The notes under the pieces: generated by a model | The model's database searches: none | Told to the model about the DNA's origin: nothing | Seen by the model: only the letters and a program-made list of their open reading frames with translations | Made by a program: the position numbers and the translations under genes | Source: Mobula hypostoma | Lineage: Eukaryota | DNA: 64,000 nucleotides | Direction of reading: 5' to 3' | NCBI RefSeq assembly: GCF_963921235.1 | Contig: NC_086108.1 | Location: 42,286,001 to 42,350,000, forward strand | Shown here: positions 16,130-51,700 of the stretch, piece after piece | How the letters are laid out: the number at the start of each line of letters is the position of its first letter | How positions within the stretch are numbered: the stretch's first letter is position 1

Positions 16130-16750
16130 TTCTAATTTATCAGGAGGCAGCAATCATAATGTGATAGAATTCACCCTGCAGTTTGAGAGGGACAGCTGAA
16201 ATCAGATGTAACAGCATTACAGTTGAGTTAAAGGTAACTAGAGGCTTGAGGAAGGATGTGCCAGAGTTGATTGGAAGGGAATTCTTCAAGGGAAGATAGT
16301 GAAGCAGCATTCTGGGAGTACCTTGGGAGATACAGTACAATTTCATCCCAGTGTAAAGAAGAAGCACACTAATGGGAGGACAAGGTAACTAGTGTTGACA
16401 AGTGAAGTCAGGGACTGCATAAAATCAAAAGAAGGCAGACAATATGATGAAGGTTAGTGTGAAGCCAAAGGATGAGAAGCCTTTGAAGACCAACAAAGGA
16501 CAACTAAGGAAACAATAAGGGGGAGGGGTGGGTAGGTGATGAATGATGAGAGTAAGTTACCCAATAATATAAAAGAAGATTGCAAAAGTTTTATAGTTTT
16601 ATATAAAGTTTTATAAAGGGTAAGAGAGGGCAAAAGTAGATATTGGATTTCTGGAAAATGATGCTGGGGATGTATTAATGGGAACAAAGAAATGGTAGGG
16701 GAATTGAATTGATAGTAGAAAACACCAGTAACATGTCAGAAATTCTAGAG
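16130..16750 (+). mobile_element. Old CR1 ORF2 fragment; probable host of the nested stack, resuming at about 19180-19320 and 21233-21640
   Basis: Degenerate CR1 ORF2-like sequence; downstream pieces are in ORF2 order (KCSVMHFGKEN, LVRPHLEY, 3' tail tatggtctta). Confidence 0.6.
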
Positions 16751-17580
16751 CAGTGTTTCCCAACCTTTTTATCCCATTGTCCCCTGAAAGCACTTTCATA
16801 CCTGCCAATGCCCCTCTTAGGCACAATGTATTTTCCAGCACCCCCATAGTATAAAAGTATGTCTACCAAATGCTAACATAAGAAAAATGATTCTGCTTCA
16901 AATTTTTATTTGTCTTTAAACCTAGCTTATGCAGTACCTTTATGCTATCAGCAGCTTTGATATCAATGTAATCCTTGAGCTTGATGGTTTTTAGGAAGAG
17001 TTGAAATACCTGGTTCAAGTTGTGACAGCAAGAGCCTTAAGTCCCCAGGCAAAACAATGTCCAAGCGGTTTCTGTTTTTTGTGAGTATGTGACTCACTGC
17101 ACTAAAGCTTCTTTCAACAAGTTAGGAAGATGGAAATGCAACAAAGAGCAGCTTGGCTCTTCTCTAAAGACCAGGAGAATTCGTATGACAGTGTAGGCAC
17201 GTACCACTAAAGCCAACATTTTTGAAAAGCGTTTCTGCTTTTTCATCATTCTAAATTTCGATAATTTCTTTTTGCAAGCTCTCTTCCTGTTCTTTCACCT
17301 TCCAAAGAAATGGGTTAATTACTCAGTCCAGAATTTCCAGATTGTTCAAATTCTTGAATCGATTCTGAAAATCCTCCTTCAGTGACTGCAGATGTAAGCA
17401 GTACTCTTGGAAATTACTGTCTATGAAAGAGAGTGCCATACTTTCCATGCAGGGAAATTTTGAGAACATTTTTCTCCCAGTGGTTTGCTTATATATTTCT
17501 AATTTTTTGATAAAAGTGGACACTGCACTTTTTGCCTGGGTTAAATTGAAATTCTCACCCTGCAAGTTCATACTTGGAAT

Positions 17581-17775
17581 TGCAAACATGAGGAATTCTG
17601 TAGATGCTGGAAATTCAAGCAACACACATCAAAGTTGCTAGTGAACGCAGCAGTCCAGGCAGCATCTCTAGGAAGAGTCCTGACGGAGGATCTCGGCCTG
17701 AAACGTCGACTGTACCTCTTCCTAGAGATGCTGCCTGGCCTGCTGCGTTCACTAGCAACTTTGATGTGTGTTGCT
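17581..17775. mobile_element. Mini-PLE inverted-repeat insertion with hammerhead motif
   Basis: TSD tcatacttggaat (17568-17580, 17775-17787); 60-bp inverted arms. Confidence 0.85.
17676..17711 (+). ncRNA. Minimal type I hammerhead ribozyme motif (A9>G variant)
   Basis: AGUC-CUGACGG-AGG(AUCUCGG)CCU-GAAAC-GUC-GACU: stem I, core, stem II, palindromic minimal stem III and GUC site. Confidence 0.7.
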
Positions 17776-18336
17776 CATACTTGGAATGTTCATTTTGTCA
17801 TACCAATTGGCTAGGTATGCCACATCTCCACGTAGAAGTTCAGTCTTGTTTCCCAAGCTCTTGTTGACTTTGAGCAAAAATTCAATCACAGTGTCAAAAA
17901 GATCAAAGAAATGTTTTAAGTAGCAGCCTTTTGACAGCCAAGCTCACTTAAGTGTGAAGAAGCAAGAGTTCAAACTCTTCATCGTTACCTTGGCCTAACT
18001 GACAAAATATTCTACTTAATGGATGAGTTTTAATTTTGTTGATAGCAGATACTACAAGGGTCATGCTTGAAAAAAGTCACTGGCTGAGGCTTTTAGCTGC
18101 GAGATGTTGATGATGAATTACATGATAGATTGCAAATGGACTCGGAATTTCTTTTTTCATAAATGCGACTTGCCATATATGGTGCTCCATCTGTTACACA
18201 AATCATCATGTTCCTAATCACAATACTTTTATGCTCAGTATACATTTTGAGCTTGTCGTAGATTGATTCTCCGTTGATATTTGTTTTTAACTTTTTACAA
18301 AAGAGATTCTCTATAAGATTTTCCACTTTTGATAAA

Positions 18337-19172
18337 CAAGTGGAATGCAAAAGTTTGGGCACCCCGGTCAAAATTTCTGTTACTGTGAATAGCTAAGCAA
18401 GTAAAAGATGAACTGATTTCCAGAAGGCATAAAGTTAAAGATGACACAGTTCTTTAATATTTTAAGCAAGAAAACTCTTTTTCCATCTTTTACAGTTTCA
18501 AAATAACAAAAAAGAGAAAGGGCCTGAAGCAAAAGCTTGGGCACCCTGTATGGTCAGTACTTAGTAACACCCCCTTTGGCAAGTATCACAGCTTGTAAAC
18601 ACTTTTTGTAGCCAGCTAAGAGTCTTTCAATTCTTGTTTGGGGGATTTTCACCCATTCCTCCTTGCAAAAGGCTTCTAGTTCTGTGAGGTTCTTGGGCTG
18701 TCTTGCAGGCACTGCTCTTTTGAGGTCTATCCACAGATTCTCGATGATGTTTAGGTCGGGGGACTATGAGGGCCATGGAAAAACCTTCAGCTTGCGCCTC
18801 TTGAGGTAGTCGATCATGGATTTTGAGGTGTGTTTATGATCATTATCCTGTTGTAGAAGCCATCCTCTTTTCATCTTCGGCTCTTTTTACAGACGGTGTG
18901 ATGTTTGCTTCCAAAATTTGCTGGTATTTAATTGAATTCATTCTTCCCTCTACCAGTGAAATGTTCCCTGTGCCACTGGCTGCAACACAAGCCCAAAGCA
19001 TGATCGATCCACCCCTGTGCTTAACAGTTGGAGAGGTGTTCTTTTTATTAAATTCTGCACCCTTTTTTCTCCAAACATACCTTTGCTCATTGCGGCCAAA
19101 AAGTTCTATTTCAACTTCATCAGTGCACAGGACTTGTTTCCAAAATGCATCAGGCTTGTTTAGATGTTCCTT
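18337..19172 (-). mobile_element. Tc1 transposon fragment with IR/DR end
   Basis: End caagtggaatgcaaaagtttgggcacccc with inner direct repeat near 18528-18546; minus-strand WPS*SPDLNIIENLW and QAVILAKGGVTKY. Confidence 0.9.
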
Positions 19173-19326
19173 TGAACCTTTTGAATAGAACTGAGAGGAC
19201 TGGAAAATCTGGTAAGATGAGAGGAGACAAAAGACAGGAAATTATGGAGTGTTTATCCTGACCACAGTGGTTGGTAAGAAGAAATTTCTGAGTACTTGGA
19301 ATATTATGGTAAAATAGAGGACTTGG

Positions 19327-20958
19327 ATAAGACCATAAGATATAGGAGCAGAATTAGGCCGTTTGGCCATCGACTCAGCTCGGCCATTTCACCATGGCTG
19401 ATCCAGTTTTCCTCTCAGCCCTAATCTCCTGCCTTCTCCCTGTATCCCTTCACACCCTGACCAATCAAGAATCTATCAACCTCTGCCTTAAATATACATA
19501 AAGACTTGGCCTTCACAGCTGCCTGTGGCAAAGAATTCCACAGATTCACCAGTCTACCTAAAGAAATTCCTCCTCATCTCCATTCAGAAAGGACAGCCCT
19601 GTATTTTGAAGCTGCGTCCTCTGGTCTTAGACTCTCCCACCATAGGAAATATCCTCTGCACATCCACTCTATCATGGTCTTTCACCATTCAATAGGTTTC
19701 AATGAGGTCAATCCTTATTCTTCTGAATTCTAGTGAACACAGGCCCAGAGCCATCAAACACTCTTCATATGACAAGGCATTCAATTTGGGAATCATTTTC
19801 ATGAACCTCCTTTGAACCCTCTCCAGTTTCAGCACATCCTTTCTAAGATAAAGGGCCAAAAACTTCTCACAGTACTCCAAGTGAGGCCTCAACTGTGCTT
19901 TATAAACCTCAATATTACAACCTTGCTTTTATATTTTAGTCCTTTGAAATGAATGCTAACATTGCATTTCCCTTCCTCACCACATACTCAACCTACAAAC
20001 TAACCCTTAGGGAATCCTGCACAAGGACTCCCAAGTCCCTTTGCACTACAGTTTTTTGTATTTTCTCTCCATTTAGAAAATAGTCAACCCTTTCATTTCT
20101 TCTATCAAAGTGGATGGCAATATACTTCCCATCACTGTATTCCATCTGCCCTTGCTTTGCCCATCCTCCTAATCTGTCTTAAGTCCTTATGTAGCCTCTC
20201 TACTTCCTCAAGACTACTTGCCTCTCCACTTATCTTCATATCATCTGCAAACTTTGCGACAAAGCCATCAATTCCATCATCCAAATCATTGACATATAAT
20301 GTAAAAAGAATTGGTCCCAACACAGACCCCTGTGGAACTTCACTAATCACCAGCAGCCAATCAGAAAAGACTCTCTTTATTCTCATTCTTTGCCTCCTGC
20401 CAATCAGCCACACTTTTTCCATGCTAGAATCTTTCCTGTAATATCATGACCTGATATAAGCAGCCTCATGTAGCACCTTTTCCCAATCCAAGTACACAAC
20501 ATCAACCGATTCTCTTTGTCTACCCTGCTTGTTACTTCAGAGTTCCAAAAGAATTTTGCTTGAGGAAACTGTGCTGACTACGGCCTATTTTATCTTGTGT
20601 CTCCAAGTACCCCGAAACCACATCCTTAATAATCAACTCCAACATCTTCCCAACCACTGAGATCAGACAAACTGGCCTACAATTTCCTTTCTTCTGCCTC
20701 TCTTCTTTCTTGAAGAGTGGAGTGACATTTGTAATTTTACAGTCTTCTGGAACCATTCCAGAATCTAGTGACTCTTGAAAGATCATTACTAACTGCTCCA
20801 TGATCTCTTCAGCCACCTCTTTCAGAACTCGGGTGTACACCATCTTGTCCAGGCAGCTTGTCTTCCTTCAGATCTTTCAGTTTCCCAAGAACCTTCTCTC
20901 TAGTTATGGTAACTTCACACACTTCATGGACTCTGACATGTGGAATTTCCACAGTGAA
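19327..20958 (-). mobile_element. CR1 LINE, 5'-truncated (taagaccataaga subfamily)
   Basis: ORFs 20532-20843, 20132-20422 (PQGSVLGP, KFADD) and 19689-19892. Confidence 0.95.
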
Positions 20959-21022
20959 GATAAGTTAGGAGAGTGAACAAAGAAGTAGCAAATGAAACAG
21001 AAGATAGGGAAGTGTAGTGTTA

Positions 21023-21231
21023 CACATAAAAGTTGCAGGTGAACGCAGCAGGCCAGGCAGCGTCTATAGGAAGAGGTACAGTTGACGTTTTGGACCGAGA
21101 CCCTTCATCCTGACCCGGCCCGAAACGTCGACTGTACCTCTTCCTATAGATGCTGCCCGGCCTGCTGCGTTCACCAGCAACTTTTATGTGTGTTGCTTGA
21201 AATTCCAGCATCTACAGATTTCCTCGTGTGT
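21023..21231. mobile_element. Mini-PLE inverted-repeat insertion with two partial hammerhead motifs
   Basis: 15-bp TSD ggaagtgtagtgtta (21008-21022, 21232-21246); about 75-bp inverted arms; same unit as 17581-17775. Confidence 0.85.
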
Positions 21232-21954
21232 GGAAGTGTAGTGTTATGCACTTTGGTAAGGAGAATAAAGGTGTAGACCAATTTCTAAATGGGGAGAGAA
21301 TTCAGAAATTGGTGGTACAAAGAAACTTGAGCGTTGTAGTTCAGGATTCCCTTAAGGATAGCTTGCAAGTTGTGTTAATGGTAAAGAAGGCAAGTGGAAT
21401 GTTAGTATTAATGTACTGCTAAGGTTTTATAAGATGTTGGTCAGACCACATTTAGAATACTGAGATCAAGTTTGGGTTGTATTAAGATTGAGATTGATAG
21501 CTTTCTGATTGGTAAGGGGGTTAGGGGTTACAGGGGAAAGGTCAGAGAATTGGGTTGTAAAATAAAAATCAGCCATGATTGAATGGCAGAGACTCAGTGG
21601 GCTGAATGGCCAAATTCTACTTCAGTATCTTATGGTCTTATCAGCTTTTTCTGAAACTCATCTAAATTACCCCCTAAACTTTTATTCTCCATGACAATAC
21701 CAGCCTAATTTGTACAGAATATTTTCTCACTTTCCAAAGTAAATCATCAGAACCTTACATAAGTTCTGTCAATCATCCAACCAGTGCTTTATAAGGTTGT
21801 GTAAAATTCCCCATTGTATCCCAGCTATTGAGTTTTAAGGGCTCCTTTTCATTTAAGGGTTCCTTCTCATTTGCTATTTTGATTTGTTTTTATTTGATTG
21901 CTACAGTTTAGTGATTTTTGAACAAGAAATCCTCATAAAGGTTAGACCCAAAAT

Positions 21955-51520: not shown

Positions 51521-51622
51521 CAGTCCTGAAGAAGTGTCTCGGCCTGAAACATTGAATGTTTACTCTTTTCTACATAGATGCTGCCTGACCTGCTGAGCTC
51601 CTCCAGCATTTTGTGTGTGTTG
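51521..51622 (+). mobile_element. About 100-bp mini-PLE insertion beginning at a hammerhead motif
   Basis: 12-bp TSD caaaagctcatc (51510-51521, 51623-51634); cagtc-ctgaaga-agtgtctcggcct-gaaac-att-gaatg. Confidence 0.82.
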
Positions 51623-51700
51623 CAAAAGCTCATCTTAGTATTATGTGATTGTTTCTGCTTTCTGATTGTTTCTGTATTAATTATTTAACTTTATTCCTAG

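Follow-up and report, generated by a model that had tools for sequence, protein, structure and literature searches.

A near-perfect inverted repeat with a hammerhead ribozyme motif in its loop is present in the window, a 64,000-nt stretch of contig NC_086108.1 of Mobula hypostoma, where it interrupts a decayed hAT-type transposon. Such hairpins are open to mis-annotation as MITEs or microRNA precursors, and a preliminary description of this one saw a mini-element flanked by a target site duplication (TSD). This raises the question whether the hairpin is a mobile unit in its own right or a product of another element.

The insertion and its target site

The insert comprises 17581-17774 (194 bp) inside a 13-bp direct repeat, whose two copies (TCATACTTGGAAT) are the same at 13/13 bases; roughly 195 bp and a TSD of 12-13 bp had been claimed. 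The arms (17618-17677 and 17716-17775) were correctly placed, at 60 nt each with one mismatch, which lies at 17654. The loop sequence was confirmed as well, including the AG at 17676-17677 that is common to arm and motif. The predicted RNA fold of the hairpin has -138 kcal/mol, with z = -16 against 200 shuffles. The site and its host are arranged as follows:

16750..17580, minus strand: host, decayed hAT-type transposon, 3' part (approximate boundary)
17568..17580, plus strand: left TSD, 13 bp, TCATACTTGGAAT, a single copy of which is present in paralogous hAT copies
17775..17787, plus strand: right TSD, 13 bp, its first T (17775) common to the arm
17775..18338, minus strand: host, portion of the decayed hAT-type transposon that lies upstream of the insert (approximate boundary)

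The host ORF lies on the minus strand and is riddled with stops. The ORF of a hAT paralog matches FAM200/ZBED5-type hAT clusters in Atlas (0.95), and Pfam gave no hAT family match on the hAT fragments. The host has many paralogs, with 40 scored of 1,176 candidates. An insert at this position was present in 0/11 paralogous hAT copies; by BLAST, 9/11 lead from the left to the right flank with the 13-mer present once, and for L040 visual inspection shows the same; in L032 the insertion site carries a small deletion. Since the TSD pair is matched by paralogs that have a single 13-mer and no insert, both the insertion and the target duplication are real. The hAT copy is also interrupted by about 1 kb at window positions of about 18339-19330, where paralog alignments end near 18338 and restart near 19330; the start of this interruption resembles what we take to be a Tc1-type end.

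The parent element and its hammerhead

The origin of the arms was sought in seven arbitrary 200-kb blocks, which together with the window make 1.464 Mb. The blocks are arbitrary and not random draws, and were chosen without regard to the hairpin to avoid query bias. In blocks and window, the arm sequence forms the 3'-terminal part of a longer repeat. Its longest copy encodes a reverse transcriptase; past a frameshift follow a linker of the form CX4CxxC and then a GIY-YIG domain, in which the translation has an internal cysteine pair. Pfam placed GIY-YIG above the cut-off (E 1e-4) and RVT_1 below it (E 0.0011), and motifs of Penelope-like elements (PLEs) are visible in the translation. The parent element also has a match in Atlas (0.96). 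A CX2-5CxxC linker is a trait of Neptune/Nematis that is absent from Penelope/Poseidon (PMC8557442). The translation of the parent has such a linker upstream of GIY-YIG, together with the cysteine pair inside the domain, and by the definitions of that paper it would be a C-terminal EN+ PLE with a Neptune/Nematis-type linker.

Long copies of the parent (L214-L232) are 98-100% identical across 205 bp, and several of them retain reading frames of more than 700 codons within the fetched stretch. Identity and open frames together indicate that this PLE family was recently active. A parental 27-mer has 37,414 exact matches genome-wide. Partial tandems, in which a pLTR ending at +104 stands directly upstream and runs into the ORF, were seen at 6/19 long loci. 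The literature searched held no paper on this PLE family, which may have a name in Repbase, Dfam or supplements.

With element positions numbered from the predicted hammerhead cut site, the hairpin divides into three parts:

17581..17617, minus strand: PLE tail, 37 nt, on one arm only (element about +69 to +104)
17618..17677, minus strand: left arm, inverted 5'-truncated pLTR copy (element +9 to +68)
17676..17775, plus strand: right copy, 5'-truncated pLTR without tail (element -32 to +68)

The left part of the insert is thus the reverse complement of +9 to +104 and the right part is -32 to +68, with a 2-nt microhomology (AG) between right copy and left arm. The insert coordinates of the preliminary description stand, and the 37 nt at 17581-17617 that it left unexplained are the PLE tail. 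In the partial-tandem long copies the same tail reads on into the ORF.

This arrangement has been described for EN+ PLEs, whose complex insertions combine a 5'-truncated copy, an inverted copy and a tail of 30-40 bp (PMC8557442; PMC3846280). The hairpin shares with them the head-to-head inverted pLTRs, the tail at one end only (37 nt), the variable TSD length and the heavy 5' truncation, but its copies are only about 100 nt long and the entire insertion is hairpin. It is the shortest case of the published inverted-pLTR-plus-tail insertion; it follows a previously described PLE pattern and is no new kind of mobile element. As an element the hairpin is ordinary, and an apparent lead towards a novel mini-transposon with a ribozyme is set aside. 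In the Poseidon element PAc of Anolis carolinensis (PMC11167929), about 70-105 nt likewise separate the hammerhead from two downstream 3' end classes, which bound a tail that continues into the ORF, and 5' ends at the ribozyme cut site are absent. PAc lacks the CX2-5CxxC linker that the parent has (PMC8557442).

The loop contains the following parts of a hammerhead:

17676..17711, plus strand: minimal type I hammerhead (register from family instances; PMC4209133)
17676-79/17708-11, plus strand: stem I
17680-86, plus strand: core, with A9>G at 17686
17687, plus strand: bulged A
17688-91/17696-99, plus strand: stem II, with G>A at 17690
17703-06, plus strand: palindromic stem III, loopless, with the predicted cut after 17707

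The claimed motif is present. A family-independent descriptor gave 38 hammerhead matches in the 1.46 Mb and one in the reversed sequence, so the motif occurs above chance. An Rfam scan of the hairpin matched no hammerhead model, and its miRNA and snoRNA matches were sub-threshold. Stem II had been drawn as AGG/CCU. In the family register the bulged A instead precedes a GGGU/GCCY stem that closes a loop of 4 nt, and it follows that the hairpin copy carries a second lesion, G>A at 17690. Conservation of CUGANGA and GAAA, which had been proposed as a test of the ribozyme, was found in the family, with the core intact in 30/49 gap-free instances. A9>G occurs in 2/49. Two-sided compensatory changes in stems I and II occur in 0/49, among copies that are too close to inform on covariation. 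The pair G10.1-U11.1 is found in 32/49 instances, compared with G-C in 15/49, and most young copies have G-U.

Minimal hammerheads of metazoan PLEs have the core CUGANGA plus GAAA, an unpaired base before 10.1, a palindromic 15.2-16.2 with no loop 3, and a short stem I (PMC4209133). The hairpin agrees with them in core, unpaired nucleotide, loopless palindrome and short stem I, and differs in its A9>G and its stem II mismatch; most young copies of the family differ in having G10.1-U11.1 instead of G-C. A loopless palindromic stem III requires a second copy, and dual hammerheads on opposite strands, 100-700 bp apart, have been noted previously (same paper). The mutated hammerhead of the hairpin has no tandem partner.

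In structure prediction, the isolated motif of an intact natural copy forms stems I and II with a probability of 0.87-0.97. In 200 nt of native context these stems are not predicted to form, and the prediction there has the hammerhead core paired with a pyrimidine tract that lies upstream. For the hairpin copy the predicted probability of stem I is about 0.15 alone and at most 0.004 in context, where the stems stay below 0.03. With neither core nor stem II intact (A9>G and 17690 G>A), the hammerhead of the hairpin is likely dead. That the A9>G copy may be inactive had been suspected, and the second lesion and the predicted folding point the same way.

Head-to-head insertions and 5' ends in the sample

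Head-to-head arrangement is common for this element, with 19/53 PLE units in the 1.46 Mb. These units measure 175 bp to 1.8 kb, and 15 of 19 are shorter than 350 bp. All 19 have one end at or beyond +94 (tail) and the other at or before +76, and the shorter end stops 25-65 nt short of the tail end (19/19). TSDs of at least 11 bp were detected for 14/19 units. The TSD finder has low sensitivity (scores above 0 in only 10/34 unpaired copies) and overlooked 5/19 pairs, including the one at window 21022; in its random control 3/150 scored above 0 and 0/150 above 9. TSD length varies, from 13 bp in the hairpin to 11 to about 18 bp elsewhere, and junctions, short-arm ends and TSDs differ from copy to copy. 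Short units, 13 in 1.4 Mb, extrapolate to roughly 30,000 for the genome.

At polymorphic cells, the arms of one insertion differ in 27/171 comparisons and arms of different insertions in 999/3,087. At the four non-CpG columns the arms differ in only 1/19 insertions. With fewer differences within insertions than between them, the two arms of an insertion appear to derive from one source variant, and gene conversion could be another source of this likeness.

The unit overlooked by the finder is a second head-to-head PLE stub at window 21008-21246, in opposite orientation, with arms 21022-21109 / 21116-21232 and a 15-bp TSD recognized by eye (21008-21022 / 21232-21246). Its junction differs from that of the hairpin at 17568-17787. 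A further head-to-head stub (L035:1832-2024) occupies another position in another hAT paralog.

The 5' ends were compiled from 123 fragments, 72 from blocks and window and 51 from loci picked by the tail, six of which run off the locus. Of these ends, 38/123 lie at -33 to -20, against an expectation of about 2.5 given the rates on either side (Poisson P about 1e-31, for an interval picked post hoc and with paired arms that are non-independent). At the ribozyme cut site (-2 to +3) there are 0/123. Unpaired copies have sharp 5' ends at -30 to -32. The pile-up site consists of a pyrimidine tract plus AG directly before stem I and recurs in several divergent PLE families (including L230:870-930), whose upstream sequences otherwise differ. 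It forms the loop and 3' arm of a predicted alternative hairpin, and presumably it also fits an initiator-like pattern. In Drosophila Penelope an intron end maps to the 5' end of helix I (PMC4209133). A pile-up at the 5' edge of the hammerhead is not described for PAc in the available text of PMC11167929, nor was it reported elsewhere in the literature searched.

Genome-wide counts of exact patterns (65,497; 45,939; 34,089) confirmed no sharp 5' step. The counts drop by 30% over -31 to -38 but also by 26% over -39 to -45, and since the two drops are similar the pattern counts do not discriminate. In the sample, 5/6 losses in the first step are truncations and 1/2 in the second is a subfamily variant. 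GT..AG ends were found in 0 of 15 joints shown of 182 between four contig sets and pLTR-ORF, a count that is uninformative on splicing. Contig joints at the hammerhead edge have unknown sequence between them and fit PLE families other than that of the parent, whose upstream sequences differ; the contigs are not proven RNA and cannot reveal RNA ends. A spliced exon was not seen upstream of the unpaired copies, where shared upstream sequence consists of further PLE copies only.

Origin of the hairpin

Very probably, the hairpin consists of two 5'-truncated copies of an abundant PLE's end joined head to head within the 13-bp target duplication; a single insertion event likely made it, and it was likely dead on arrival. 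Direct observations are the parent element, how the arms map to it, the one-sided tail, paralogous sites that lack the insert and the diversity of junctions, while the order of events is one that we infer from work on PAc. In vitro, PAc nicks and extends both strands and uses uncleaved RNA, and its reverse transcription begins at two internal sites, one at either end of the tail (PMC11167929). By analogy, the PLE protein would nick both strands 12-13 bp apart. One nick would prime cDNA at the tail end (+104), and at the other nick synthesis would begin from the second start site (+68). The two cDNAs would extend toward the 5' side of the RNA, that of the right arm passing through the uncut hammerhead, and would halt early, at +9 and -32, to be joined via the 2-nt AG microhomology. 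The hammerhead would be a passenger carried in with the pLTR.

A different priming step is conceivable for the same parent and an equally dead product, namely snap-back self-priming of a cDNA or antisense transcript, as proposed for rotifer Penelope with an antisense template (PMC3846280). Two of 29 tail-picked loci are joined via a 22-nt self-complementary stretch at -41 and 1/29 via a 4-nt palindrome, as this mechanism would suggest. In the hairpin, however, the arm with the hammerhead ends at +68 and the other at +104, so that fold-back of the former cDNA cannot give the tail, and the tail arm stops at +9 and cannot template the hammerhead. Because neither arm is contained in the other, this copy cannot have come from one cDNA folding back on itself. 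The end asymmetry of all 19 head-to-head units fits two start sites, and we regard self-priming as unlikely; for head-to-head insertions as a class, self-priming on an antisense template is a competing explanation.

Much less probable still is a self-propagating non-autonomous family, SINE- or retrozyme-like, with a transcribed master re-inserted in trans by the PLE protein. The hairpin retains the tail, which is needed for protein binding in other PLEs (PMC11167929), and at least 40 full-length look-alikes exist genome-wide (40/40 scored, best of 4,053 candidates). The junction of the hairpin recurs in 15 of the best 30 look-alikes, a query-biased set in which two are duplicates of one locus; this would also fit limited re-copying of the hairpin. 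On the two small contigs L012 and L021, shared flanks mark one insertion duplicated or assembled twice. Against a family, the junction has only 18 exact 27-mer matches genome-wide (39 for a junction one base longer) and occurs in 0/29 loci picked by the tail alone. Copies with it fall into at least four haplotype/tail combinations, all of which are also found in long copies. Short-arm ends and TSDs vary, tandem units are absent and no 5' ends lie at the cut site. A family of its own would have a fixed junction and ends from one master; with variable junctions, short-arm ends and TSDs, and a rare junction on several haplotypes shared with long copies, the hairpin is not supported as a distinct unit and is best read as an insertion product of the autonomous element. 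The preliminary description was right in seeing a PLE-derived, non-coding sequence, whereas a mini-element in the sense of a distinct non-autonomous unit is not borne out. Non-LTR retrozymes are likewise non-coding, with a type I hammerhead and kinship to PLE pLTRs (10.64898/2026.07.22.740005; PMC7229834). They are head-to-tail tandems with a hammerhead per unit, whereas the hairpin has only one unit, arranged head to head, and its one hammerhead is broken; identity with them was rejected.

The near-perfect 60-bp inverted arms could also suggest a MITE, or an RNA hairpin under selection by the host (a microRNA precursor, for instance), and Rfam gave weak miRNA matches, the best with E 0.055 and 24 bits where the gathering score is 103. 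The probability of such an origin is negligible. The arms are not terminal, owing to the 37-nt one-sided tail, the insertion site is within a dead transposon, and the mapping of both arms to a retrotransposon end, together with the tail and the variable TSD length, refutes it.

The tens of thousands of recent insertions of the PLE family provide statistics on the transposition mechanism, among them the strict asymmetry of tail and short ends, a cut site without ends and the pile-up at the 5' edge of the ribozyme. It is a doubtful but possible extension that in all head-to-head insertions each nick uses a different one of the two start sites, through twin priming by a dimeric protein on uncleaved RNA, and that a defined RNA end or barrier at about -31 sets a third of the copy lengths. 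No PLE paper in the literature searched contained the term 'twin priming'. If -31 were a splice acceptor of an intron that masks the core, splicing would turn the ribozyme on and only unspliced RNA would be left to serve as template, a possible clue to the retention of introns in PLEs. Elsewhere in the window, older PLE ends that stand alone lie at 2348-2482 and 51522-51623; they belong to related families, and their hammerheads have decayed.
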